This document shows, in pieces, positions 1-11,569 of a stretch of DNA of 11,569 nt. The DNA is taken from IMG/VR virus record IMGVR_UViG_2671180283_000020. One strand, written 5' to 3'. A program made the position numbers and the translations under genes. The notes beneath the pieces are model-generated. The model was not told where the DNA came from and ran no database searches. It was given only the letters and a program-made list of their open reading frames with translations. Source of the DNA: a virus. Its lineage: Duplodnaviria > Heunggongvirae > Uroviricota > Caudoviricetes. How positions within the stretch are numbered: position 1 is the stretch's first letter; each line of letters starts with the position of its first letter.

Positions 1-356
1 CGGTCGCCTGCGGCAACGGCTTTCCGGCTGATGGTCGTACGGACCTTTTTACCCCGGAGAACACCGGCAAGTCCCATAACCGCCATGAGACGTGCCACTG
101 TACATCTGGCCACCCTGATTCCTTCCCGTAACAACTGACGCCAGACTTTACGCACACCGTACACCTGATGATTTTCATCGTATACGCGCTGTATCTCTCT
201 CTTCAGCCAGTCGTCGTGCTGCGCACGGGCACTGCGTTTATCCGGATGATGTCGCTGTTGCTGACAATGGTAATACGTTGACGGGGCAATATGCAGTTCG
301 CTGCATACCGGTCCGACCCCGTACTGCTCACGCAGCTTATCCAGCAGTGGCATCAT
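1..356 (-). CDS. IS3-family transposase OrfB, N-terminal part only (truncated by window edge); normally made as an OrfAB fusion by -1 frameshifting
   Basis: Reverse-complement translation from 356 gives [79 protein letters not shown]..., which matches my recollection of IS629/IS1203 OrfB. The frame is open to position 1. Confidence 0.85.
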
Positions 357-679
357 TTTTTCCAGAGGCGGTCGAACTCCGCCTTCGCAAAATAAGCGGA
401 AGCCTGGCGAAGGATATCGTTACTGCGGCGCAGTTCACGATTTTCACGTTCCAGCTCTTTCAGACGCTGACGTTCAGCGCTGGTGAGCCCACCATCACCG
501 CCCCCGGTATCCCGCTCATGCTGGCGAACCCAGACACGCAGAGTCTCCGGCGTACAGCCAATCTTTGGGGCAATGGAACAAATTGCCGCCCACTGTGAGT
601 CATATTCATCCTGACTTTCCAGAACCATACGAATCGCCCGCTGACGGACTTCGGGGGAAAAACGAGTATTTTTAGTCAT
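353..679 (-). CDS. IS3-family transposase OrfA (HTH/leucine-zipper subunit), IS629/IS1203-like
   Basis: 108-aa [26 protein letters not shown]...[36 protein letters not shown]. The stop overlaps the orfB ATGATG, and a GAGG Shine-Dalgarno sits upstream of the ATG. Confidence 0.9.
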
Positions 680-704
680 CCTGTTTACCTCTTTCTCAGG
701 GAGT

Positions 705-1709
705 TTAGTCTCCAGGATTTCCGGGGCGGTTCACTACGGGATCTTTGTGAATGTCGATCGGACGTTCACGGACAAGGCCAAAAATAGTCTGGCGGTCGTA
801 GCGAAGGGCATCAGGCTGTTTGCGCATTGATGCCGAGATACGCTTCCAGTCTTCGCGGTCGTTGTCGATAACTTCATTTTTTGCCCAGCGATGGATGCTG
901 CCGTCAATGTTTCCGGCATCCACATCACCAGGCCAGAGAGCGTAGGCCAGTTCGTCATCCAGTGTTTTCCATGTCTGCTTGTATTCGCGATGAATGGCAG
1001 CAATGACCGGGCTGATTTTTCCTGTTGAATTTTCACTGTACTGTTGATTGGCTCTGGCGCGTGCGAGATCAACAACAGACGTGTATTTTCCGGTTTCCTT
1101 GCGTTCACCTTCGCGACGTTTTTTCCAGATGCGCATCTCTGCCTGAATTTCGGGCCATTTGGCACCAGGCTTACATTTATGCTTAACCCACCCGATGGCA
1201 TGCAGCTTAAGCTCCGGATACATGGCGTTAACTTCTGGCATTTTCATCAACGCTTCAACGATATGTCCGTCGAATGTTGCCATGTCTTCCTGCAACAATT
1301 CCTGTGCGCTAATAACCATATCAACGGTGATGTTTTCACATGTGTCGAACTTAACCATGACAGCGTTCTGTACTTCAGGGGCCAGCTTGTCAAAAGTGAC
1401 GTTCATCGGATCGGATTCAGTCTCAACCGGGACAAAGGAAGCAGACTCCTCATCCCAGCGGTTTTCCTGCATATATTCAGCATCCCAGGAATCGAGGGCA
1501 GGGCGGGGTATACCGGGTTTATCCTCGCAGACAAGAAATTTATAAGCGCAGTCCTGAGCAGCCGGATAATGCTCCAGGAATTGCCAGTGAAATTTTGCGC
1601 GGGCGCGACGTTCATCACCGGCTTCAATGGCAGTGGCTACAGCGACGGCACCTTCTTCCTTTATTGCCTGTTCGTCCGGAATGGCGGCGCAAATAAAGAC
1701 TTTACTCAT
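705..1709 (-). pseudogene. Prophage gene in the ydfE position, 3' end disrupted by the IS insertion (native sequence 734..1709; last ~10 codons and the stop come from IS terminal sequence)
   Basis: 334-aa ORF with GAGGT Shine-Dalgarno before the ATG at 1707-1709. The reading frame runs uninterrupted across the IS terminus at 733/734 and stops inside the IS, so the native C-terminus is missing. Synteny downstream of dicB-ydfD suggests the ydfE slot. No family recognised by eye. Confidence 0.6.
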
Positions 1710-1801
1710 TTTGTTTTACCTCATTACAGATTTAAGGGTGAACAAATCCCTGCCATTGCTGGCATATAAGAATGAAATCGGATATTTATTACGGAACTGT
1801 T

Positions 1802-1993
1802 TTAAAGACCTGCCGGGATTTCGTTATTATCCTGGTGAATAACTTTATCGACCGGGTAACAGTTACCGGGAATTTTCTGTTCGGTTGCTGCAGTCACACA
1901 CTCCTGCATTGTCCTGTGAACACTGACTGCAATATCAACTGGCTCTCCGGAAACAAGAAAAACTGTCAGAACAAGTGCAAATGCTGTATTCAT
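1802..1993 (-). CDS. ydfD: YdfD-like small lysis protein (63 aa) with hydrophobic N-terminal segment
   Basis: MNTAFALVLTVFLVSGEPVDIAVSVHRTMQECVTAATEQKIPGNCYPVDKVIHQDNNEIPAGL; AAGGA Shine-Dalgarno 8 nt upstream. The start ATG overlaps the dicB stop (ATGA). Closely resembles my recollection of Qin prophage YdfD. The track ORF 1802..2047 carries an N-terminal extension that I do not accept. Confidence 0.8.
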   Translation of the reverse strand: MNTAFALVLTVFLVSGEPVDIAVSVHRTMQECVTAATEQKIPGNCYPVDKVIHQDNNEIPAGL

Positions 1994-2178
1994 TGCCAGC
2001 ATCCTTTTTGTATCGGACGTAAACGGGCCAGCATTGAAAGAATGCATATTTTATTTAATAGCTCCCGTTCGTGTTTTCTCTTGTTAATGGCATCTTCAGT
2101 AAATACAGGGTTACTGATAGTGACACCAATTTCAAAACAACCTTCAGACGTATTAACGTTTGGTAATAACGTTTCCAT
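1990..2178 (-). CDS. dicB: DicB cell-division inhibitor (62 aa)
   Basis: METLLPNVNTSEGCFEIGVTISNPVFTEDAINKRKHERELLNKICILSMLARLRPIQKGCWQ, near-identical to recalled E. coli DicB, with the same length. GAGGA Shine-Dalgarno 7 nt upstream of the ATG at 2176-2178. The track ORF (1990..2283) is extended upstream. Confidence 0.85.
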   Translation of the reverse strand: METLLPNVNTSEGCFEIGVTISNPVFTEDAINKRKHERELLNKICILSMLARLRPIQKGCWQ

Positions 2179-2352
2179 TATCGCGTCCTCAACAATGAAT
2201 TTTGTGATGCGGTGCCTGGTGCCTCCAGGTGACGTTAACCAGTTAACAATTAACGCCGGATACAGAGAATCCCCCCATAACACTGTTTTTGGTTTTAACT
2301 GTTCCGCGTGCGCTCAGCCGCATTCACCGCATCACAAAATTCACTTTAAAAA

Positions 2353-2405
2353 GGGCGGCAGAGCAGTCACGGAGTAAAACTGATACCGCCAAACGTCACC
2401 AGAAA
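2353..2405 (-). ncRNA. dicF: DicF small RNA (53 nt, ftsZ-targeting sRNA of dicB operons), followed by a T-run at 2348..2352
   Basis: Reverse complement of 2353..2405 is TTTCTGGTGACGTTTGGCGGTATCAGTTTTACTCCGTGACTGCTCTGCCGCCC, matching the DicF sequence as I remember it. It ends in a GC-rich stem plus U-tail and sits upstream of dicB on the same strand, as in Qin. Confidence 0.8.
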
Positions 2406-2681
2406 ATTGATAACAGAGGGCGTTGCAGCGGGGTTGTCACTTAAGCGTATGGTCAACCTGACAACCCGGTGTCCTCAACGGGGGAAGGAATAACCCCGCC
2501 ATACTTACCGCCGCGCCATTTCGCGGGTTGCCACAACCGGAAGCGCACGGTCGAATTAAATTTAACGACACCGTACAGTGAGACGAACTTCGCCGTGCGC
2601 TTTCGTGTTGTGTGCCTGCTTTTAACCACGTCAGGCGAGGTGGTATCCTTCTTATCCCGAATAACCAAGAAGGAAATCTAT

Positions 2682-2882
2682 ATGACTAAAGAAGAATTTG
2701 TCTCTTATATTTTTGATAAAACGGTTGAAATGTATGCCGCTACTTACGGGTCCTGTAATCCTCTGAATAAACCAGAGGGGAAAGATGATTTCGACAAAAT
2801 TTACCGCTTCTTGGAGGACCGCTATATCAAAAGGTTAGAGGACGCAGGGATCAAATCCCCAGTGAAGTCACCATTGTCCTGA
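2682..2882 (+). CDS. Hypothetical 66-aa protein, antisense to the dicB operon leader (uncertain)
   Basis: MTKEEFVSYIFDKTVEMYAATYGSCNPLNKPEGKDDFDKIYRFLEDRYIKRLEDAGIKSPVKSPLS with AAGGA Shine-Dalgarno 7 nt upstream of the ATG at 2682 and a balanced, protein-like composition. Its orientation opposes the surrounding operon and its 3' end overlaps the convergent 125-aa gene. Confidence 0.3.
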   Translation: MTKEEFVSYIFDKTVEMYAATYGSCNPLNKPEGKDDFDKIYRFLEDRYIKRLEDAGIKSPVKSPLS

Positions 2883-3228
2883 GAACTTGCAGGACGTCAT
2901 GATCGTAACTTCCATCCAAACCGCGACGGCAAATTGCTTCTCGTATTACCGGAAGCAGTTCGCTGGAAATCTCGGTGCATATTTCACCTGATAATACGCT
3001 TGGCTCAAGTGAGAATATTGGTGAACTTACGGTCTTGGTCTCGACAGTTTCAGAGTCAGTGCCAACATTATAAAGCTCAACGAAAGCGGTCTTGATTTTC
3101 CGGGCCAGATCTTTTGCTGGCTCGCTTGCAATATCTTTCCCGATTTCTCGCAGCACAGAATGCAATGTATGAGCTGCTGTTTTCTGTACATCAGACGGTA
3201 AATCTTTAAATTCCATCGTCAGCCTCAT
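2851..3228 (-). CDS. Hypothetical prophage protein (125 aa from the ATG at 3228; 121 aa if the ATG at 3216 is used) in the dicB operon
   Basis: The first ATG overlaps the ydfA-like stop as TGATG; a second ATG at 3216 has a GAGG Shine-Dalgarno 6 nt upstream. Sequence MEFKDLPSDVQKTAAHTLHSVLREIGKDIASEP... is acidic and protein-like. No family recognised. Confidence 0.6.
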   Translation of the reverse strand: MRLTMEFKDLPSDVQKTAAHTLHSVLREIGKDIASEPAKDLARKIKTAFVELYNVGTDSETVETKTVSSPIFSLEPSVLSGEICTEISSELLPVIREAICRRGLDGSYDHDVLQVLRTMVTSLGI

Positions 3229-3380
3229 CAGTCAGTGTTTCTGGCTAACCAGCAACGCGCGCCAGATCCGGTTTTAAACGTTTTGCTTTTGGTATATGTC
3301 ATCGCGGTGAACGTACCGCCCTGGTTGGGGAACACGCCGTACACCAGAGATTCGTTGTTGCCAAGATCGATAGTATCCAT
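3228..3380 (-). CDS. ydfA: YdfA-like small prophage protein (50 aa), first gene downstream of the dicA-like repressor
   Basis: MDTIDLGNNESLVYGVFPNQGGTFTAMTYTKSKTFKTGSGARCWLARNTD with GAGGT Shine-Dalgarno 4 nt upstream of the internal ATG. The track ORF (3228..3473) includes an unsupported N-terminal extension. Size and position match ydfA of Qin; the sequence match is from imperfect memory. Confidence 0.55.
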   Translation of the reverse strand: MDTIDLGNNESLVYGVFPNQGGTFTAMTYTKSKTFKTGSGARCWLARNTD

Positions 3381-3496
3381 GTTGACCTCATTTCCCCTTA
3401 ACGCCGGGGTAGCGGAACTGTTTGCTGAGAACACCGTGCGGTGTCTTGATGGATCGTAATTTAGTTTTCTCATGAATATTGGTCAAGTACTTTTAA

Positions 3497-3509
3497 TGAG
3501 AAAACTCAA
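3497..3509. promoter_or_regulatory. Operator-like inverted repeat TGAGAAAACTCAA (copy 1), in the promoter region of the minus-strand dicB-type operon
   Basis: A 13-bp motif with TGAG/CTCA inverted half-sites, identical to the copy at 4031..4043. It lies between the repressor gene's 3' end and ydfA, overlapping candidate minus-strand -35/-10 elements. Confidence 0.45.
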
Positions 3510-3520
3510 TATTTAATGCA

Positions 3521-3555
3521 AAATAAAGCCAATACATTGAAATGTAAGGCTTTAA
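3521..3555 (-). terminator. Possible intrinsic terminator downstream of the dicA-like gene
   Basis: Minus strand reads GCCTTACATT-TCAATGTATTGGC (imperfect stem) followed by TTTATTTT. Stem is imperfect, so low confidence. Confidence 0.3.
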
Positions 3556-3571
3556 AATTTGTGAAGGGGGG

Positions 3572-3979
3572 TTATTGATGTTTGTTACGTTTGCGAGCTT
3601 CTAGTAGCTCGGTGAATAGGCGATTAAAATTCTCAACGCGGGCACGGAGTTCGCTGATTTGTGCTTGCTGCTCTGATTTTGGAAGTGCGCGATACAATCG
3701 CAACATCTCCAACTCATCTTCCGATAAGTCTAAGGCGCTGTTGAGTGCAACTGGTGGATCTGGTGTTTTATCCTCGTCACCAAACAGTATCCAAGTTGGT
3801 GAACATTGCAATACCTCAGCCAGGCGATGCAAATTTTGCCCGCGCGGGGCTGTATGGTCGCTTTCCCATAGTGAAATTGATGAGCCAGATACGCCAGCAG
3901 CTTTGCTTAAATCGTTTTGACTTAAACCAACCTGTTTGCGTCTTTCTCTAATTCGTTGACCTAAAGTTTTCTCGTTCAT
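3572..3979 (-). CDS. dicA: DicA-like XRE-family HTH repressor (prophage immunity repressor, 135 aa)
   Basis: MNEKTLGQRIRERRKQVGLSQNDLSKAAGVSGSSISLWESDHTAPRGQNLHRLAEVLQCSPTWILFGDEDK...: HTH_XRE signature in the N-terminus. Same length as DicA and strongly resembles it as I recall. Divergent from a Cro/DicC-like gene. Confidence 0.9.
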   Translation of the reverse strand: MNEKTLGQRIRERRKQVGLSQNDLSKAAGVSGSSISLWESDHTAPRGQNLHRLAEVLQCSPTWILFGDEDKTPDPPVALNSALDLSEDELEMLRLYRALPKSEQQAQISELRARVENFNRLFTELLEARKRNKHQ

Positions 3980-4000
3980 ATTTAGATATCTTAATAACCC

Positions 4001-4043
4001 TTGACTTGAGATTCCTTGAGTGATTACTATTGAGAAAACTCAA
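4001..4043 (+). promoter_or_regulatory. Candidate promoter for the dicC-like gene (-35 TTGACT 4001..4006, -10-like TTACTA/TACTAT about 4024..4030) overlapping operator-like motif TTGAGAAAACTCAA (4030..4043, copy 2) and additional TTGAG half-sites
   Basis: Hexamers read directly, with 17-18 bp spacing. The motif is identical to the 3497..3509 copy; three TTGAG half-sites occur within about 40 bp. Confidence 0.45.
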
Positions 4044-4056
4044 CTTTGGAGGGGTG

Positions 4057-4284
4057 ATGTTTAAATCAGACGTAATTAATTTTTATGGGACGAAAGCCAA
4101 AGTAGCGAAAGCTGCTGGTGTTGATCCATCTGCTGTTTCTCAATGGGGGGAACTGGTTCCTGAAGGTCGCGCGATGCGCCTGCAAGAGGCATCCGGCGGG
4201 GAACTTCAGTACGACCCCAAAGTTTATGACGAATATCGTAAGGCAAAGCGGGCGGGGCGGTTGAACAATGAAAATCACCCCTGA
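4057..4284 (+). CDS. dicC: Cro/DicC-like small regulator (75 aa), divergent from the repressor
   Basis: MFKSDVINFYGTKAKVAKAAGVDPSAVSQWGELVPEGRAMRLQEASGGELQYDPKVYDEYRKAKRAGRLNNENHP with GGAGG Shine-Dalgarno 5 nt upstream of the ATG at 4057. The track ORF starts at an upstream TTG (4030), which I consider less likely. Size and position match dicC/ydaS-type genes. Confidence 0.75.
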   Translation: MFKSDVINFYGTKAKVAKAAGVDPSAVSQWGELVPEGRAMRLQEASGGELQYDPKVYDEYRKAKRAGRLNNENHP

Positions 4285-4819
4285 ACAGGTTTGTGAGGCT
4301 CTGGATGCCTGGGTATGCCGACCAGGAATGACACAGGAGCAGGCGACGATATTAATCACGGAAGCATTCTGGGCTCTGAAAGAACGCCCGAACATCGATG
4401 TTCAACGCGTCACGTTTAATGATGGCGAGGTTGATCAACGGGCGCTGGGCGTTAACCGGGTGAAGATATTCGAACGCTGGAAAGCTATCGACACCAGGGA
4501 TAAGCGGAAAAAATTCACGGCGCTGATTCCGGCAATTATGGAGGCTATCCGAATTAGTGATTTCAGGCTGTATCGTGAGATCAGTGATGGAAAAAGCATT
4601 ACGTACATGATCGCCGGATTAAACAAAGAATATGGCGATGTGGTGGAGTCCGGGCTGCTTTTTGCGGATCCAGCTGTTGTGGAACGTGAGACTGACGAGC
4701 TTATAGAAAAAGCTATTGCTTTCAAGCATGCGTATCGTCAGCAATATCAATATTACTTTGCAGATAAACAAATGTCTGCCAGGGGTTCGTATGAGTATCG
4801 ATGCACTACGATGGGCTAA
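4268..4819 (+). CDS. YdaT-like prophage protein (183 aa; proposed CII-like/toxic regulator family)
   Basis: Follows the Cro-like gene with a 17-bp overlap. Contains a K-x-x-x-LIPAI-x-x-AI segment reminiscent of Rac YdaT, recalled with low precision. Confidence 0.65.
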   Translation: MKITPEQVCEALDAWVCRPGMTQEQATILITEAFWALKERPNIDVQRVTFNDGEVDQRALGVNRVKIFERWKAIDTRDKRKKFTALIPAIMEAIRISDFRLYREISDGKSITYMIAGLNKEYGDVVESGLLFADPAVVERETDELIEKAIAFKHAYRQQYQYYFADKQMSARGSYEYRCTTMG

Positions 4820-5822
4820 AAAGGTGAAAACCGGCAGTTCATCCAGTAAGTCAGTATTGACCTGGCTTGCTGATATGTGCGGTGCCGATTTGTGTGCATA
4901 CCCGTCTGTATCTGCCCTGGCAGAAGTAACGGAACTGAACAAAAAGACAGTGCAGGACAGCTTACGACACCTGATGGAGATTGGGTTAATTGTTGATACC
5001 GGTGAGAGAAAAGGCAGAACAAAGCAAATTGTGGTGTACCGACTTATCGGTGTAGAAGAAAGTGTTGCCGAACCTGAATACACCCAAAAACGGGAGTCTT
5101 TAAAGGTGGGTAAAATTGGTGCTGTTAATAAAAACAGTACCGAAAATGGTTATGTTTCAGCACAAAACAGACCCAAAAACGGAACTCTTAGCTGCATGGA
5201 AAATAACCAAAGACACCCAAATTTTCCATCAAAGACACCCAAAAACGGATCACGGAACCCAAAGGAACCCAAAGTTCTAAACCCCACACATAACGCACGC
5301 GAGAGTGCTCTGACCAGTGAGCAGGAAGTTTTGTCGTTACAGGCAGTATTCCTGGATGGCCTGAGAGAACCCATCGGAAAATTTCTGATGACCGATAGCT
5401 GGCATCCGTCGCGGGATTTTCGACGACGGGCTGCGTTGTGGGGGATGGCTTTGCCGGAGCCGGAATTTACACCTGCTGAACTTGCCGCATTCCGGGATTA
5501 CTGGAGTGATGAGGGGAAAGTGTTTACGCAGATTCAGTGGGAGCAGAAATTCGCCCGTCACGTAAATCACGTCAGGGCGCAGGTTAAACCAGTCAGCAAG
5601 GGGGTGAACCATGCAGCAGCACCAGGGGGCACCGCATCACGGGCAGTTCAGGAAATTCGGGCAGCACGTGAGCAGTGGGAACGTGAAAACGGATTTATCC
5701 GCGACGGAAACGGCGTGGAAGCTGTGGGAACTCATGGGGGAGGTTTATTCGAACCGCTGGACCCAGAAGAACGGGGCCGCACCTTCGAAGCTCTGGATTG
5801 CACAGATTGGTGCGATGACTGA
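4791..5822 (+). CDS. Replication initiator, lambda O-like role: N-terminal HTH replication-protein domain plus C-terminal DnaT-like domain
   Basis: From the ATG at 4791 (AGGGG Shine-Dalgarno 4 nt upstream): MSIDALRWAKKVKTGSSSSKSVLTWLADMCGADLCAYPSVSALAEVTELNKKTVQDSLRHLMEIGLIVDTGERKGRTKQIVVYRLIG... with C-terminal ...FTPAELAAFRDYWSDEGKVFTQIQWEQKFARHVNHV. The last ~70 codons are lower-complexity and overlap the P-like ORF, so the true C-terminus is uncertain. The track start at 4716 is rejected (no Shine-Dalgarno; internal to the YdaT-like gene). Confidence 0.8.
   Translation: MSIDALRWAKKVKTGSSSSKSVLTWLADMCGADLCAYPSVSALAEVTELNKKTVQDSLRHLMEIGLIVDTGERKGRTKQIVVYRLIGVEESVAEPEYTQKRESLKVGKIGAVNKNSTENGYVSAQNRPKNGTLSCMENNQRHPNFPSKTPKNGSRNPKEPKVLNPTHNARESALTSEQEVLSLQAVFLDGLREPIGKFLMTDSWHPSRDFRRRAALWGMALPEPEFTPAELAAFRDYWSDEGKVFTQIQWEQKFARHVNHVRAQVKPVSKGVNHAAAPGGTASRAVQEIRAAREQWERENGFIRDGNGVEAVGTHGGGLFEPLDPEERGRTFEALDCTDWCDD
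5168..5275. repeat. Iteron-like direct repeats (ACCCAAA-containing units, at least five copies) inside the initiator gene linker; candidate phage replication origin
   Basis: cagACCCAAAAACGGAac (5168..5185), AGACACCCAAAtttt (5211..5225), AGACACCCAAAAACGGAtc (5233..5251), GGAACCCAAAG x2 in tandem (5254..5275), preceded by an AT-rich stretch at about 5110..5165. By analogy with lambda, where ori iterons lie inside gene O. Confidence 0.45.
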
Positions 5823-6276
5823 GCAGCAAATCCGACAGGTCTGCCGCCAGTGCATGGACCGCTGCCGGGAGGGTGAAACATGGCCTCCGGACCTGGCTGA
5901 GTTTGTGGCACTGATTTCGGAAAGCGGAGCCAATCCATTCGGTCTGACGGTGGATGCTGTGATGGAGGAGTACCGCCGCTGGCGCAATGAGTCCTGGCGA
6001 TACGACGGAAGTGATAAGTACCCGTGGTCTCAGCCTGTGCTGTATCACATTTGCCTCGAGATGCGTTCAAAGGGGGTTGAGCGCCAGATGACCGAAGGGG
6101 AATTAAAACGGCTTGCAGAACGGCAGCTGACGAAATGGGCAAAGCATGTTAGTAACGGCCTGAGCGTTCCGCCAGTCCGGCGACAACTGGCGGCACCCAA
6201 ACGCCCGTCGGGGCCAACGCCAATTGAGTTGCTGAAACAGGAATATGAACGCCGGAAAGCGGCTGGGCTTGTTTGA
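5611..6276 (+). CDS. Lambda P-like replication protein (helicase loader family)
   Basis: Strong Shine-Dalgarno AAGGGGGTG 6 nt upstream of the ATG at 5611. The C-terminal half (FVALISESGANPFGLTVDAVMEEYRRWRNESWRYDGSDKYPWSQPVLYHICLEMR...TEGELKRLAERQL) resembles lambda P (FVAWCREEA...VYEYCRKRGLYPDAESYPWKSNAHYWL...TDAELRRKAADEL). Alternative start at the ATG 5815, which overlaps the O-like stop as ATGACTGA. Confidence 0.7.
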   Translation: MQQHQGAPHHGQFRKFGQHVSSGNVKTDLSATETAWKLWELMGEVYSNRWTQKNGAAPSKLWIAQIGAMTEQQIRQVCRQCMDRCREGETWPPDLAEFVALISESGANPFGLTVDAVMEEYRRWRNESWRYDGSDKYPWSQPVLYHICLEMRSKGVERQMTEGELKRLAERQLTKWAKHVSNGLSVPPVRRQLAAPKRPSGPTPIELLKQEYERRKAAGLV

Positions 6277-6308
6277 GTTGAGAAGTAATTTTTACCGGGA
6301 GGAAATTT

Positions 6309-6583
6309 ATGGAGACTGTTTTTGACGCACTGAAAGCAATGGGAAAAGCCACATCCATAGAACTTGCTGCGCGCGTGAAGAAGTGCTGAACGAACTATGG
6401 GAACTGAAAAAGGCTGGTTTTGTTGATAAAAGCGCGTACACCTGGCGTGTGGCTGATAACAACGTTCAGCAGGAACAGCCAGCGCAGGCAGAACTGCCGG
6501 AAGAAACCACCACAATGAGTGAAGTTATGCAGCGCATACTGGCATTTTATCAGGGAAATGTTCGATATTTTAGACGTTACTAG
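6309..6583 (+). pseudogene. Small winged-helix-like prophage gene split by a frameshift (rem-position gene): 26-codon N-terminal ORF 6309..6389 and a C-terminal ORF in another frame reaching the stop at 6581..6583
   Basis: GGGAGG Shine-Dalgarno 6 nt upstream of the ATG at 6309. Frame 0 reads [26 protein letters not shown] then stops; the adjacent frame reads (E)[27 protein letters not shown]... from about 6380. The two pieces together look like one small DNA-binding protein. Confidence 0.5.
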
Positions 6584-6975
6584 ATTAAAGAGCATTAGTT
6601 CAGATGTGAATTGACATTGTGTGGCACAGGGTTGGGCTAGCGTGGGGGTTTGCTTTGTGTAAGAAACGGATGCTCTGCAAATTACTACTAATGCTTAATG
6701 TTAGTCTGATCTGCTCCCCGATGATTAATACACCGCTATGTTAGTAATGTCTGTAGATCGCTGTGTGTTGCATCCATCGGTTGACCCCACAGTCCAAACC
6801 AGACTGTCAGCTTTGATTCGATTCTATCTACTCAACCTGTCAGGTAATGTCTGAGCTAATACACAGAGTACGGCTATCGCGAACTTTAAGCTAGGTATCT
6901 GATACGCACCGTTCACTTGTTTGTACTTCTTGCACTGACTAGCTATCGTGCGCAGTTATTTATAGGTAATCTCCA

Positions 6976-6984
6976 GTGTATAAT
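6976..6984 (+). promoter_or_regulatory. Candidate -10 element (TATAAT at 6979..6984 with TG immediately upstream) for the 281-aa gene
   Basis: gtgTATAAT about 38 nt upstream of the ATG at 7023, followed by AGGAGG Shine-Dalgarno 6 nt before the ATG. No good -35 hexamer found. Confidence 0.4.
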
Positions 6985-7022
6985 TTTCCAACTTATGGGA
7001 GATTGTAAAACAGGAGGAATAT

Positions 7023-7868
7023 ATGAGGAAAAAATCGTTTGGACGTTGCCCGTTTGATTTCGACGAAGATGTAAAAAAAATAGCCGCGATAAATAAATAT
7101 ATCCATGCGAAATTTGAGAGGCATAAAAATAAAATAGATAACCTAAAGGGGGTGGAACAAAAATTGATGGTTTTACATTACTTTAATGTACTGAATGAAC
7201 TTAGTAATCAGGCTATATTTTCTTTGAGTACCGGAGCCTTTTCAGCATCGGAAGTATTAACTAGAGTTATAATGGAACAGGCTGCCAATCAATTTTATAT
7301 AGCAATTGATGATGGAAAAAATGCACAAGCATTACTCAAGGGTAGTAAGAAATTAGTTCATAGTAATGGGAAACGGTGGCTGGAGTGTTTAAAATCCAAA
7401 GAAATGACTAATCCAGCAGCAGATGAAAGGATTCGTATCGGAAAAGAGCTAACTGATATGTTTAATAGATTGTGGCCAAATACACCTGAATATCCTGGAA
7501 CCAAAAAGCTTTTCGAAGTAATTGGCTGGGAAACACACTATCATGCCTATTACGTCCCTCTTTGTGATTCAATACATACATTCTCTGATGATATGGCAAA
7601 TATAGTATCTCTATATAATGCAATCCAAAGCGATAAAACTACTGCTATCGAACTCACTCTTGCAGTTAAACAAGAAAATAAACGGCTGGCAATTTATAAT
7701 GTCGTAATTGCTATTGGCCTGCGGTGTGAGGCCTTAGTAAATGTATTTAACTCTTTAGGTTATCGAGATATTATAACTGAAATGGCGCCAACAATAGATG
7801 CAGTCAACCAGATTATAATTCGATATGATGATTTCGAACATTCCAGAATTTTTATTGTCAATAATTAA
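7023..7868 (+). CDS. Orphan hypothetical protein (281 aa), AT-rich, predicted largely alpha-helical; candidate defence/abortive-infection cargo gene of unknown family
   Basis: Long ORF in AT-rich DNA with a near-consensus AGGAGG Shine-Dalgarno. No Walker, HNH, HEPN or other motif recognised by eye. Located between the prophage replication module and a decayed integrase plus the Septu operon. Confidence 0.75.
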   Translation: MRKKSFGRCPFDFDEDVKKIAAINKYIHAKFERHKNKIDNLKGVEQKLMVLHYFNVLNELSNQAIFSLSTGAFSASEVLTRVIMEQAANQFYIAIDDGKNAQALLKGSKKLVHSNGKRWLECLKSKEMTNPAADERIRIGKELTDMFNRLWPNTPEYPGTKKLFEVIGWETHYHAYYVPLCDSIHTFSDDMANIVSLYNAIQSDKTTAIELTLAVKQENKRLAIYNVVIAIGLRCEALVNVFNSLGYRDIITEMAPTIDAVNQIIIRYDDFEHSRIFIVNN

Positions 7869-7936
7869 TTGGCAGAATTCGTACATGCACAACAACTAGT
7901 TATAGTTGACCTATTTCGCTCTTGAGAGACAACCAT

Positions 7937-7969
7937 ACTCAAATCTTCCACATTGCAGGAGATTTGAGT
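7937..7969 (+). other. Perfect 10-bp inverted repeat ACTCAAATCT / AGATTTGAGT with a 13-nt loop, immediately upstream of the integrase-remnant ATG
   Basis: Read directly from sequence. The loop/right arm contains GGAG (7957..7960), the Shine-Dalgarno for the ATG at 7970. No U-tract follows, so not a classical terminator. Confidence 0.5.
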
Positions 7970-8490
7970 ATGAATACGTCACCGAGGAACAAAGACAGTA
8001 TCATAGGCCCAAAAAGACCACTTCAGATATCTCATATCTGGGGGCTCCAAATCCGGCTTGAACTGGAAGGTAAAACGCGTGATTTAGCTCGGTTTCAAGC
8101 AGAGCTACGGTGCTGCAACTGAAAAACTGGCAGTCCTATCCAATTTGAGATAACCAAAGGGACAAGAGAAGCTGTTTCTGCATTGATAAAGCTTGGCAAT
8201 TTACGCAGTAAAGACTACTTGTTCCGATCTCGGGTCGGTACTAACCAACACATATCAATCCTGCAATATAACCGAATCTTTCATAGGGGGGAGAAAAGCT
8301 TGGTCTCGAAGATTCGCTTTACAGCACACATTCCATGAGAAGAACAAAACCTTGCCTTGTCTGCAAGAAAACTAAGAATCTCCGGGTGATCCAACTTCCG
8401 TTGGGCCATAAGAAAACGGAAAGCACAGTTCGTTATCTGGGTATAGAAGTTGATGATGCATTAGAGATCTCTGAATCGATCGAAGTCTAA
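7970..8490 (+). pseudogene. Decayed small tyrosine recombinase (integrase catalytic-domain family): in-frame TGA at 8120..8122 and a frame change near 8336
   Basis: Three consecutive segments translate to MNTSPRNKDSIIGPKRPLQISHIWGLQIRLELEGKTRDLARFQAELRCCN* / KTGSPIQFEITKGTREAVSALIKLGNLRSKDYLFRSRVGTNQHISILQYNRIFHRGEKSLVSKIRFTAHIP* / RRTKPCLVCKKTKNLRVIQLPLGHKKTESTVRYLGIEVDDALEISESIEV*. These carry recombinase hallmarks (TRDLA Arg, H-x-x-RRTK, LGH, VRY tyrosine). The last two segments lack any Met, so they are absent from the ORF track. Confidence 0.65.
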
Positions 8491-8902
8491 AGCTGTCAGG
8501 GCTGCAGCAGCAGCCCTGTGCCAAGAGCGTACCAATATATGTCTCAAAAAATTGGGCACAGGTCAATATCAATACCAACAACTCTGATTGTGCTCATGTG
8601 ATTTACTCCTGTAGAAAACGCAGACAGTAAAAATATTTCACTGGCTGCTTCAGACAGGGCGTCCATCATATCATTACATAACAATAGCGGGGCACGATAT
8701 CTAGACATGCAGCAACGATGGACATAGAATGAGTACAATCAAAAGCATGTTTAACTACTTTAATTTAAAAATCTTAGAATCTTAGGTGTAGAGTTCAATA
8801 CTTAGTTACATACCCTTTTGAAAGCATCACAAATCATAACTATGAGCCTGTTAAAGGCATAGGTATTCTTAATTAAGAGCATTTTAATGAGAGAAAAATA
8901 AA

Positions 8903-10276
8903 ATGAAAAGACTATATTATACCCATCATGATAGTCGAACCTTAAAACTTGCTATAGAAGGTGATGTTTCTGATAATGCGAATATTTTTACAGTAATTGT
9001 AGGTAAAAATGGCGTTGGAAAAAGCAGATTGTTATCTCAGATTGCTAAAGACTGTATTCAAGATGTTCATTTCTTGAAAACTTTTAATCCATTATTTGAC
9101 AGAGAAATAACACCAAAGTTAATTGCCGTATCTACCAGCCCATTCGATAAATTCCCTCCAGGGCGTAGGTCATTAAATCACCAAAGGAAAGAAAATAATT
9201 ATCGCTATGTGGGTATGCGTGGAGAAGGCCCCTTCGGCGTATCAAATGCCGTATCCCTTTTATCTTCAGCAGCGAGAGGTTGGCTAGAGAAACTTGCTTA
9301 TTCAGAAAATCCTGCAAATTTACTCGATGTTTTTCATTCTATTGATTTTGAGCCCCATATAGAGTTTGTATTTAAACCAACTTACAACGGACCGGACACT
9401 CCTGACTATAACTTCATTGGTGTATATTCAGATGAGATATTAACGGAAGTTAAGGAGTTATATTTAAAATACAATATAAAAATTGACAGGAAGAATATTG
9501 AGAGTCTCTTAAAGTTAAACTCCGAATCACGTCATGATATTTACGAAGCACTGGTTGAAATTAATCGATTTGAACCTGAACGTAGGGCTGTAACCTTGTC
9601 AGTCGATTTTACCAATGGTGAAACATTGGTTGGCTCGACTTATGCGAATAATTATTTTTCTAGATCAATTCTTAAACTTATGAACGCTGGCTTCATGAGA
9701 TTGATGGATATGCGACTCATAAAAAAAAGCTATGGTCCCATGTCACTTAAACGTGCGAGCTCGGGAGAACAATGTTTATTAGTGATGTTGCTTGGAATTG
9801 CAGGGCATATAACTGATGGTTCTATAATATTAATTGATGAACCGGAAATAAGCTTGCATCCTCGATGGCAGGAAGAGTTTATCATTATGTTAACAAAAGC
9901 ATTTTTAACTTACTCAGGTTGTCAATTCATAATTGCAACTCATTCACCACAAATAATATCCAATTTGCCGAATAAAGGTTGTTATATAACATCTTTGTCG
10001 AAAAGTTATCTTTATAAAGCAAAATACTTTAGCAACCGGTCTGCAGACTATCAACTTGCGGAACTATTTGATGCCCCTGGCATTATGAATGAATACATTG
10101 CCAGGTTAGCTTTCAATTTACTTTCAAAAGTTAAGACTGCTAAGTTAGTAACAGATGATAATTGGCGTGAATTAAAACAACTCCAACTTCTCCTTGAAAA
10201 CGTTAATAGTAATGACCCTATTAATGAACTCGTAAATTCCGTATCTCAGGTGTGTGAAATTTATGCCAAAAATTAA
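8903..10276 (+). CDS. ptuA: Septu-like PtuA: ABC/OLD-type (AAA_15/AAA_21-like) ATPase, 457 aa
   Basis: Walker A VIVGKNGVGKSRLL near the N-terminus, ABC-signature-like SSGEQ, Walker B IILIDEPEISLHP, H-loop IIATHSP. AT-rich gene that overlaps the downstream HNH gene. Confidence 0.8.
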   Translation: MKRLYYTHHDSRTLKLAIEGDVSDNANIFTVIVGKNGVGKSRLLSQIAKDCIQDVHFLKTFNPLFDREITPKLIAVSTSPFDKFPPGRRSLNHQRKENNYRYVGMRGEGPFGVSNAVSLLSSAARGWLEKLAYSENPANLLDVFHSIDFEPHIEFVFKPTYNGPDTPDYNFIGVYSDEILTEVKELYLKYNIKIDRKNIESLLKLNSESRHDIYEALVEINRFEPERRAVTLSVDFTNGETLVGSTYANNYFSRSILKLMNAGFMRLMDMRLIKKSYGPMSLKRASSGEQCLLVMLLGIAGHITDGSIILIDEPEISLHPRWQEEFIIMLTKAFLTYSGCQFIIATHSPQIISNLPNKGCYITSLSKSYLYKAKYFSNRSADYQLAELFDAPGIMNEYIARLAFNLLSKVKTAKLVTDDNWRELKQLQLLLENVNSNDPINELVNSVSQVCEIYAKN

Positions 10277-10898
10277 AAATCCAATTAGATTCAGCGCAGA
10301 GTCATTAGATATTATTGAGAAAAAATTGTCTTCTCCAGATTTTAAGCATACCAACTGGGGAGATGATGATTTGCAAGTTCTCCGTGCAGAAATTAGAAAT
10401 CATTACAGAGAAGAACAAAAGCTAGAATGTGTATATTGTCATGAGCCTATTGGGGTAAGAGCTGCACAAGCTGCTCCTATAGAGCATATTGTGCCAAAAT
10501 CTCAATATCTATGTTTTATTTTTGAACCTAAGAATCTATGTGTAGTATGTCCTGACTGCAATGAATTCAAAGGTAAAAATGAAGTGTTATTTGAACCCGT
10601 AATAAATGGGGGGCGGCGCAAAAACTATCCAACTGCATCTGCATCATTTCGCATCGTTCATCCACATATAGATGATTATGAGATGCATATTATAAAAGCA
10701 AATCGTGTTTATGTGGACAAAACACCTAAAGGGCACTATACCATTGGAATATGTAAACTAAATAGATTTTTTCATTATTTTGGGATGTGTGATGAATTTG
10801 TTAATGATGCAAAAATTGCTGAGGCAAATGAAAATTTTTTCAAAAAAGGTAGTATTACTACTAATGAATTATTGGATGATGACATTCATTTGATTTAA
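10263..10898 (+). CDS. ptuB: Septu-like PtuB: HNH endonuclease, 211 aa from the ATG at 10263 (214 aa if the GTG at 10254 is used)
   Basis: HNH-type motif CVYCHEP...APIEHIVPKSQ...CVVCPDCNEFKGKN...VHPHID (Cys pairs plus His/Asn/His). Overlaps the ptuA 3' end by 14-23 nt, implying one operon. Confidence 0.8.
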   Translation: MPKIKNPIRFSAESLDIIEKKLSSPDFKHTNWGDDDLQVLRAEIRNHYREEQKLECVYCHEPIGVRAAQAAPIEHIVPKSQYLCFIFEPKNLCVVCPDCNEFKGKNEVLFEPVINGGRRKNYPTASASFRIVHPHIDDYEMHIIKANRVYVDKTPKGHYTIGICKLNRFFHYFGMCDEFVNDAKIAEANENFFKKGSITTNELLDDDIHLI

Positions 10899-11007
10899 CT
10901 ATGAATTATTATATTGTAAAGTAATCAGGTAAGATATGTTAGACAGTGAGACTATTGCCTTACAGAATTCATTATTCTTATGGATCGCCTTTCTGACTGA
11001 TTTCATA

Positions 11008-11036
11008 TTGGCGGGGTAACGGGAGTTAAGTAGAAT
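11008..11036 (+). promoter_or_regulatory. Candidate hok mRNA promoter (-35 TTGGCG 11008..11013, 17-bp spacer, -10 TAGAAT 11031..11036)
   Basis: Hexamers read directly. The downstream leader (GCTTGAGGCTATCTGTCTCA...GGCAGATAGAGAAAAGCCCC) resembles the 5' region of plasmid R1 hok mRNA as I recall it. Confidence 0.45.
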
Positions 11037-11094
11037 GGCTGCGGGTGCTTGAGGCTATCTGTCTCAGGCATGAACACCAAAGGCAGATAGAGAA

Positions 11095-11165
11095 AAGCCC
11101 CAGTTAACATTACGCGTCCTGCAAGACGCTTAACATTAATCTGAGGCCAATTTCATGCTAGACAC
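11095..11165 (-). ncRNA. sok: Putative Sok-like antisense RNA (boundaries approximate)
   Basis: Inferred from the minus-strand promoter at 11170..11198 and from the hok/sok paradigm, where Sok is antisense to the mok translation-initiation region. Neither end is clearly defined by a terminator in the sequence. Confidence 0.3.
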
Positions 11166-11169
11166 ATGT

Positions 11170-11198
11170 AGGTTAGCCTCTTACGTGCCGGAAGGCAA
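11170..11198 (-). promoter_or_regulatory. Candidate sok promoter on the minus strand (-35 TTGCCT, 17-bp spacer, -10 TAACCT)
   Basis: Reverse complement of 11193..11198 is TTGCCT and of 11170..11175 is TAACCT. It sits between the upstream ATG at 11155 and the hok ATG, the arrangement I recall for the R1 sok promoter (TTGCGC / TATCCT). Confidence 0.45.
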
Positions 11199-11211
11199 GG
11201 AGAAGCAGGCT

Positions 11212-11367
11212 ATGAAGCAGCAAAAGGCGATGTTAATCGCCCTGATCGTCATCTGTTTAACCGTCATAGTGACGACACTGGTAACGAGGAAAGACCTCTG
11301 CGAGGTACGAATCCGAACCGGCCAGACGGAGGTCGCTGTCTTCACAGCTTACGAACCTGAGGAGTAA
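11212..11367 (+). CDS. hokD: Hok/Gef-family type I toxin (51 aa), HokD/RelF-like
   Basis: MKQQKAMLIALIVICLTVIVTTLVTRKDLCEVRIRTGQTEVAVFTAYEPEE with AAGGAG Shine-Dalgarno 9 nt upstream. Near-identical to recalled HokD (RelF). The track ORF 11155..11367 is an in-frame upstream extension from the mok-equivalent ATG. Confidence 0.85.
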   Translation: MKQQKAMLIALIVICLTVIVTTLVTRKDLCEVRIRTGQTEVAVFTAYEPEE

Positions 11368-11435
11368 GAGACCCGGCGAGGGAGAAATCCCTCGCCACCT
11401 CTGATGTGGCAGGCATCCTCAACGCACCCGCACTT

Positions 11436-11465
11436 AACCCGCTTCGGCGGGTTTTTGTTTTTATT
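11436..11465 (+). terminator. Rho-independent terminator at the hok mRNA 3' end
   Basis: AACCCGC-TTCG-GCGGGTT stem-loop followed by TTTGTTTTTATTTT. A further hairpin GGCGAGGG-agaaat-CCCTCGCC lies at 11375..11396. Confidence 0.6.
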
Positions 11466-11569
11466 TTCAACGCGTTTGAAGTTCTGGACGGCGCCGGAAT
11501 AGAATCAAAAATACTTAAGTAGCGCGCAGGGATAAGAGGGATGGTCCCTTAAAGGGGAGAGCTAATTAT

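Follow-up and report, generated by a model that had tools for sequence, protein, structure and literature searches.

The question raised by this locus is whether the minus strand of positions 1802..2405 carries a complete dicF-dicB-ydfD cassette and, if so, in which operon and in which prophage the cassette is located. The window, that is, the whole stretch of DNA that was analysed, comprises 11,569 nt of a viral record assigned to the class Caudoviricetes (IMGVR_UViG_2671180283_000020). A previous reading, based on the letters and open reading frames of the window (the sequence-only reading), had recognised here a Qin-type module for division inhibition and lysis. The dicF-dicB-ydfD cassette is already known, has been well studied and occurs almost throughout E. 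coli. Our analysis indicates that 1802..2405 almost certainly holds the dicF, dicB and ydfD genes of a dicBF-type operon, which would work as that of E. coli K-12 does. The coordinates of all features are detailed in Table 1.

Table 1. Features of the window related to the dicF-dicB-ydfD cassette, in order of position.
Feature	Position	Strand	Evidence or remarks
IS629/IS1203 (IS3 family)	1..733	-	Interrupts exonuclease gene; window starts inside the IS
5' part of exonuclease gene (counterpart of K-12 ydfE)	734..1709	-	phrog_2082, positions 1-326 of 823
Terminator-like hairpin and T-rich tail	1741..1764 (hairpin 1764..1751)	-	Pattern scan
ydfD, 63 aa + stop	1802..1993	-	ATG 1993..1991; stop codon ends at 1802
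dicB, 62 aa + stop	1990..2178	-	ATG at 2178, TGA 1992..1990; Pfam and NCBIfam
dicF, 53-nt sRNA	2353..2405	-	Rfam RF00039 and identity to K-12 dicF
Long hairpin, about 22 bp, 5' of dicF	2531..2613	-	Consensus fold and single-sequence fold
Antisense 66-aa ORF	2682..2882	+	With the 121-aa ORF, in place of K-12 ydfB/ydfC
121-aa ORF in place of K-12 ydfB/ydfC	2851..3216	-	phrog_33007, full length
ydfA homologue (DUF1391), first operon gene	3228..3380	-	Pfam PF07151, 88.6 bits
dicBp-like promoter, TTGACC-17 nt-TAAATT	3458..3486	-	Pattern scan; alignment with K-12
Candidate operators: 11-mer AGTTTTCTCAT, two exact inverted copies around the -35 hexamer	3463..3473, 3496..3506	+, -	
DicA-type repressor, 135 aa	3572..3979	-	NCBIfam NF007257 (DicA), 238.3 bits, positions 1-135 of 135
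Candidate PR/PRM-like operators: AGTTTTCTCAT, two copies with one mismatch each	3965..3975, 4030..4040	+, -	
DicC-type Cro-like regulator, 75 aa	4057..4284	+	NCBIfam NF007282 (DicC), 167.6 bits; Pfam P22_Cro

Identity and integrity of the three genes

The presence of a 53-nt DicF with its terminator, as proposed by the sequence-only reading, was confirmed. The covariance model RF00039 matched positions 2353..2404 of the minus strand over its whole length (model positions 1-52 of 52) with a score of 76.7 bits and an E value of 6.5e-16, the gathering score of the model being 48. Alignment with dicF of the Qin prophage of E. coli K-12 MG1655 gave 53 identical positions out of 53, and the identity extended into the flanks, over 73 aligned bases on the 5' side and 22 bases on the 3' side. 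The terminator consists of a stem-loop (2354..2390) followed by TTTTT (2348..2352), with a fold that is both the Rfam consensus and the minimum-energy structure. DicF is the canonical K-12 allele and thus both pairing regions and the terminator are unchanged, with no divergence in either seed or terminator; the 5' region, pairing with xylR, and the 3' region, pairing with ftsZ and pykA, are the same as those of the characterised K-12 RNA (PMC5069750). The terminator was not listed by a simple pattern scanner, since its stem is interrupted by an internal loop. The fold z-score of the 66-nt DicF piece alone was unremarkable (-1.35), so that energy by itself is insufficient to identify the terminator, and the structure of the covariance model and the fold were relied on. 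The gene is embedded in a dicBF-type operon, 3' of the RNase III hairpin and 5' of dicB, and its distance to dicB is 174 nt, the same as in K-12.

The dicB gene is preceded by a GAGGA Shine-Dalgarno sequence, 7 nt 5' of the ATG. Its product was matched over the full length (positions 1-62 of 62) by Pfam PF05358, with 127.4 bits (cut-off 27 bits), and by NCBIfam NF049927, with 132.7 bits (curated cut-off 100 bits), in agreement with the 62-aa DicB previously proposed. The protein is 100% identical to that of E. coli O157:H7 EDL933 (WP_000449192.1) and 89% identical to K-12 DicB, from which it differs by K2E, Q36H, V47L, L55P, M56I, P57Q and A61W. It is untruncated, residues 1-35 match those of K-12 except for K2E, and L5 is kept. 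The part of DicB required experimentally is the N-terminus including L5, residues 1-54; L5 is critical, residue 2 must exist although K2A, K2G and K2R stay active, and DicB without its last 8 residues is still toxic, whereas bigger C-terminal deletions weaken toxicity (PMC4967827). Judged against these data, five of the seven differences lie at tolerant or dispensable positions, four of them in the tail and one at position 2, and the remaining two, Q36H and V47L, would be conservative. No disabling substitution was detected in dicB. The change K2E is a charge reversal and falls outside the substitutions tried in PMC4967827.

The start of ydfD and the stop of dicB share the sequence ATGA (1990..1993), and the coordinates given for the 63-aa YdfD by the sequence-only reading were exact. 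A longer ORF of 81 aa, starting at 2047, is called mechanically in the same frame; K-12 and the RefSeq relatives are annotated with the start of the 63-aa form. YdfD was matched by Pfam DUF1482 (PF07358) with 88 bits (cut-off 25 bits) and by phrog_1092 over its full length. It is 100% identical to the EDL933 protein annotated as DUF1482/YdfD (WP_001090200.1) and 94% identical to K-12 YdfD, with four differences (S3T, V6A, M33V and I57N), and its first 16 residues, approximately, are hydrophobic. In the alignment with K-12 YdfD the full length, N2, L63 and both conserved cysteines are kept; loss of even one residue at either end of the protein weakens lysis (PMC8835842).

YdfD lyses cells upon ectopic induction and binds IspG in vitro and in vivo, and the lysis is rescued by ispG or HMBPP (PMC8835842). 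Co-expression of dicB prevents this lysis, as stated in the introduction of the same paper, citing earlier work. The identification of YdfD was therefore right, but, as its lysis is known only from ectopic expression, the name lysis module describes a potential and not a demonstrated role. The identity in sequence, the completeness and the arrangement of the elements were observed directly in the window. None of the three genes carries a change that appears disabling and all three look intact at the sequence level, as had been claimed; their activities would be those of the K-12 counterparts.

Operon context and proposed mode of action

The three genes are not self-contained. In K-12, expression of dicBF depends on a promoter located about 1 kb upstream and on processing by RNases III and E (PMC10448788); the upstream elements needed are all present in the window. 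Judging by the sequence, a lambdoid prophage of Escherichia or Shigella carries dicF-dicB-ydfD here as the distal part of its early-left (PL-like) operon. The dicBp-like promoter aligns position for position with the TTGACC-17-TAATCT of the dicA-ydfA intergenic region of K-12; the leader after the promoter is conserved with respect to K-12, in contrast to the spacer and the DNA further upstream. The genes of the DicA-type repressor and of the DicC-type regulator are divergent, in a switch layout similar to that of P22 immC, and the promoter that follows the repressor gene reads into the cassette.

The 11-mer AGTTTTCTCAT has two exact inverted copies at this promoter, and the two copies with one mismatch bracket the intergenic region between the dicA-like and dicC-like genes. 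The corresponding places in K-12 are occupied by another repeated motif, TGTTAGTCATnnCTAA, and operators have been described there (PMC10448788). The copies of AGTTTTCTCAT are thus candidate operators, presumably recognised by a heteroimmune DicA-type repressor. The identity of this repressor to K-12 DicA is no higher than 56%, so that it is the repeated motif that suggests its control of the dicBp-like promoter.

Downstream of the promoter, the ydfA homologue is 92.6% identical to K-12 ydfA at the DNA level. The 121-aa ORF that follows is annotated as hypothetical in relatives; a fused ydfB-ydfC was considered and rejected, as its product matched neither YdfB nor YdfC in blastp. A PADLOC scan of DicB, YdfD and the two uncharacterised ORFs yielded zero matches to defence-system models. 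Similarity to K-12 resumes about 220 nt 5' of dicF. The long hairpin located in front of dicF is kept in the window, in K-12 and in EDL933 despite differing apical loops, and a covariation test with these three sequences found 0 compensatory pairs, so that the hairpin is conserved without statistical covariation support. The cut of RNase III in K-12 makes the 5' end of a 190-nt DicF precursor (PMC10448788), and the equivalent position in the window, mapped by counting, is about 2542, in the 3' arm of the hairpin. At the other end of the operon, the terminator-like hairpin is found 38 nt past the ydfD stop. It is likely to be the 3' end of the transcript from ydfA to ydfD, as its position fits the end of the K-12 ydfABC-dicFB-ydfD transcript, of 1,608 nt (PMC10448788).

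The mode of action proposed is taken, in its activities and regulation, from the K-12 literature. DicA represses dicBp, and the repression is relieved by the antirepressor Rem, by stress or by stochastic switching (PMC10448788). The DicA-type repressor would likewise keep the promoter of the window shut, as in K-12 Qin, and derepression would give a single transcript including ydfA, the 121-aa ORF, dicF, dicB and ydfD. This transcript would be cut by RNase III in the long hairpin, RNase E would then make the 5' end of DicF at 2405, and the 3' end would be formed by the stem-loop and U-run, some of the transcription continuing into dicB and ydfD. Together with Hfq, DicF would pair through its 3' part with the ftsZ mRNA, and also with the xylR, pykA and manX mRNAs, blocking translation; repression of ftsZ via the 3' part, and of xylR, pykA and manX, has been described (PMC10448788, PMC5069750). 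DicB would bind MinC and bring it to the septum via ZipA, with dismantling of the FtsZ ring, and would also block the entry of phage DNA that depends on ManYZ, both effects being known from PMC6832061. YdfD would be translationally coupled to dicB and, when over-produced, could lyse dividing cells; it is reported to bind IspG.

Several alternatives to this scheme were considered. It is possible, although rather doubtful, that YdfD is not a natural lysis protein but a DUF1482 protein of small size, located in the membrane or exported, and that its lysis phenotype is an artefact of over-expression, the functional unit being formed by DicF and DicB only. The observation of lysis upon ectopic induction would agree with this, as would the protection by co-expressed dicB, the gene transcribed just before ydfD (PMC8835842), the hydrophobic N-terminus, and the representative of S. 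flexneri, in which ydfD is cut to 18 codons and dicB and dicF are kept. On the other hand, ydfD has its full length and the ATGA coupling at every other locus examined, and both the interaction with IspG and the rescue by ispG or HMBPP (PMC8835842) speak against this alternative.

A working K-12-like operon, the reading preferred here, might also fail at its promoter or in DicB. A transcriptionally dead locus, with the operon permanently repressed or the promoter non-functional and the cassette kept by linkage as an inert remnant, is unlikely. The prophage is indeed decaying, with the IS in the exonuclease gene, a frameshifted recombinase and a DUF1627 remnant, and the promoter agrees with the consensus at just 9 positions out of 12; however, the K-12 promoter at the same place, with a comparable match, is active upon deletion of dicA (22-fold rise), K-12 Qin, even more decayed, still yields DicF in stationary phase (PMC10448788), and the window retains an intact repressor and Cro-like gene as well as all four intact copies of the motif. 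There is, finally, a very small probability that the cassette is intact but its DicB allele is weakened or inactive as a result of the seven substitutions, among which K2E, with its reversed charge beside the essential N-terminus (PMC4967827), and the tail changes L55P and A61W are the suspects. The identity of 89% to K-12 DicB and the codon differences with respect to K-12 dicB, seven non-synonymous and three synonymous, would favour such a loss. The tolerance of position 2 to A, G and R and the dispensability of the last 8 residues (PMC4967827) argue against it, and E2 is also found in the DicB alleles of E. albertii and Z1322HEC0003; moreover, the same allele is annotated in EDL933, and the 731-nt region around the cassette has best matches at least 99% identical in 1374 E. 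coli records, which is unlike a dead allele.

Prophage background and mosaic structure

The sequence-only reading had related the module to Qin-type prophages, but the prophage itself is, by comparison of sequences, not Qin; it is another lambdoid prophage with a DicA-type immunity region that carries the same cassette. The window and the K-12 Qin operon (ydfABC-dicF-dicB-ydfD-ydfE under dicA/dicC) share dicF, the 174-nt spacing, the ATGA overlap, the RNase III hairpin, the leader after the promoter, the place of the promoter, ydfA as first gene and a DicA/DicC-type pair. In both, the downstream exonuclease gene is interrupted by an insertion sequence, IS2 in K-12 and IS629/IS1203 in the window. 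They differ in the repressor and in the candidate operator motif, which makes the window prophage probably heteroimmune to Qin, and also in the replacement of ydfB/ydfC by the unrelated 121-aa ORF and the antisense 66-aa ORF, in the 7 amino-acid differences of DicB and the 4 of YdfD, and in the replication genes, Septu defence pair and hokD that the window has on the other side. Comparison with K-12 by blastn showed no similarity across the dicA-like gene. Identification of the window as Qin was rejected on the basis of the 56% identity of DicA, the replacement of ydfB/ydfC and the presence of replication genes.

An assignment to an O157 prophage was rejected as well, the region being a mosaic of two known types. 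One of them is represented by EDL933, whose copy of the cassette, in the prophage adjoining ynfA, has identical DicB and YdfD and 97.9% DNA identity over 738..2623; that prophage differs in its flanks, with ydfC plus a RelBE pair on the upstream side and xis, int and an uninterrupted exonuclease gene on the downstream side. The other is the prophage adjoining yccA in the E. coli strains Z1322HEC0003 and Z1323HEC0108 (and E2348/69-like strains), which is 99.8% identical at the DNA level over 2074..11569, a span including the N-terminal half of dicB, dicF, the immunity region, the replication genes, Septu and hokD. The C-terminal half of its DicB is of another type (65% overall identity), its YdfD is only 47% identical, position 53 of its DicF is G and not C, and its exonuclease gene is intact, without the IS. 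In the closest relative the antirepressor gene rem is located beyond the point that corresponds to the end of the window.

In the window, the exonuclease gene is interrupted near codon 326 of 823, while relatives have an intact gene of 824 aa. The IS copy, which ends with TGAACCGCCCCGG at 733, has 99.9% identity to an element whose annotation assigns it to the IS1203 family, and its ALIL frameshift pseudoknot was detected with 121.5 bits. The exact configuration of the window was found in none of 5426 complete E. coli genomes, and the best genome match reaches a coverage of 97% only when pieces around IS copies unrelated to this one are joined together.

From the extent of the two matches, one similar to Z1322HEC0003 and the other to EDL933, a mosaic joint is located inside dicB, near codon 35. 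Prophage sequences PPompW, including those deposited with Stx2a phages, have only the segment from dicF to about codon 37 of dicB in common with the window. Upstream of the joint, dicF and the N-terminal half of DicB are nearly invariant across prophage types, whereas downstream the C-terminal half of DicB and YdfD vary together, in types represented by the window and O157, K-12, E. albertii and Z1322HEC0003. The joint can be accounted for by ordinary lambdoid mosaicism plus a stronger constraint acting on dicF and the N-terminus of DicB. That it marks an exchangeable, co-evolving pair, in which the tail of each DicB would be matched to its own YdfD, for example as an allele-specific antidote, has a decidedly remote probability; the scan of GTDB species representatives for DicB gave 7 loci, a number insufficient to tell co-evolution apart from linkage. 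Of all features of this region, the recurrent joint midway through dicB is the least ordinary.

Distribution and relevance

The 731-nt region around the cassette matches DNA in 4650 of the 5426 complete E. coli genomes, with a median of 2 and a maximum of 9 matching places per genome. The best identity to these genomes reaches 99.9%, which excludes a chance match. The count of 1374 records given above refers to the whole 731-nt region and not to the dicB or ydfD alleles separately. Additionally, 38 phage records match, some of them from isolated temperate phages with annotated DicF, dicB and ydfD. In mEp460_ev081, Tritos and others, the whole 604 nt of the cassette match at 95-99.5% and the three genes are annotated; these are complete phage genomes, whereas the window comes from an IS-bearing prophage. 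Within the GTDB species representatives, the occurrence of DicB was limited to Escherichia, Shigella and one MAG labelled Veillonella, which is probably mis-binned.

Thus, at least one dicF-dicB-ydfD cassette that is complete and canonical, together with its regulatory context, is present in the genome from which the window derives, a finding of little significance beyond annotation. The cassette bears on the filamentation potential of the strain and on the exclusion of ManYZ-dependent phages. Several copies of dicF are documented in EHEC (PMC5069750, PMC7873438), in which DicF activates pchA (summarised in PMC7873438); if the strain belongs to an attaching-effacing pathotype, the cassette would also bear on DicF-dependent regulation of virulence.

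Mosaic structure of the cassette and natural variants of its genes

A mosaic joint was located within dicB, at codons 35–37 (about 2067..2074 of the window). Upstream of this joint, the prophage on the yccA side of Escherichia coli Z1322HEC0003 showed 99.8% DNA identity to the window, whereas downstream of it the cassette copy of the O157:H7 strain EDL933 showed 97.9% DNA identity. Similarity to the PPompW prophage sequences also ended at about the joint, which argues that dicF and the N-terminal half of DicB form a single conserved travelling block.

Several Escherichia and Shigella loci carried G instead of C at DicF position 53. In the variants of two Escherichia albertii loci (L007 and L011), which scored below the Rfam threshold, TTTCTGGTGA on the 5' side was retained, as was the stem GGCGG/CCGCC, and the inner loop, including the ftsZ-pairing part, was changed or deleted. 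The species representative of Shigella flexneri (L008, about 2683..2740) retained dicF and dicB with a ydfD shortened to 18 codons, a decay that the window ydfD has been spared.

Features of the window and of the comparison loci (L-numbers); coordinates are of the window unless a locus is named
Feature	Position	Strand	Assignment or remark
IS629/IS1203 copy	1..733	-	
ALIL frameshift pseudoknot, inside the IS629/IS1203 copy	282..398		
Exonuclease gene, interrupted part	734..1709	-	
66-aa ORF, convergent, antisense to operon	2682..2882	+	phrog_34441
121-aa ORF	2851..3216	-	phrog_33007
Operon leader, directly 3' of promoter	3381..3450	-	conserved with K-12
DUF5677 gene	7023..7868		adjoins Septu pair
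Tyrosine recombinase, decayed	about 7900..8500		adjoins Septu pair
Septu anti-phage defence pair, PtuA + PtuB	8903..10898	+	PADLOC
hokD/sok type I toxin-antitoxin locus	11043..11367	+	Rfam sok match and HokD ORF
HokD ORF, 51 aa	11212..11367	+	
DicF variant, L007 and L011	about 2275..2330		
DicF variant, L003	7620..7671		

Immunity switch and operon leader

Four copies of AGTTTTCTCAT were found across the two promoter regions of the immunity switch (3463..3506 and 3965..4040), while K-12 carries TGTTAGTCATnnCTAA at the matching positions. This difference suggests that the DicA-type repressor of the window, 56% identical to K-12 DicA, differs from it in operator specificity. Although the immunity regions of K-12 and the window differ, the leader that follows the operon promoter is conserved, and within it lies a small hairpin, ACACCG-CA-CGGTGT. 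The place of ydfB and ydfC in K-12 is taken in the window by the 121-aa ORF and the antisense 66-aa ORF, which overlap by 32 nt.

Flanking genes and accessory cargo

The exonuclease gene of the window was broken by the IS629/IS1203 copy at about codon 326 of 823, whereas its counterpart in the K-12 Qin prophage, ydfE, is interrupted by IS2. These are independent insertions into the same gene, just 3' of ydfD.

The Septu pair, PtuA (457 aa; 550 bits in PADLOC) and the HNH nuclease PtuB (214 aa; 278 bits), lies in a cargo island with replication genes on one side and hokD on the other. In the hokD/sok locus, sok was matched in Rfam with 117 bits.
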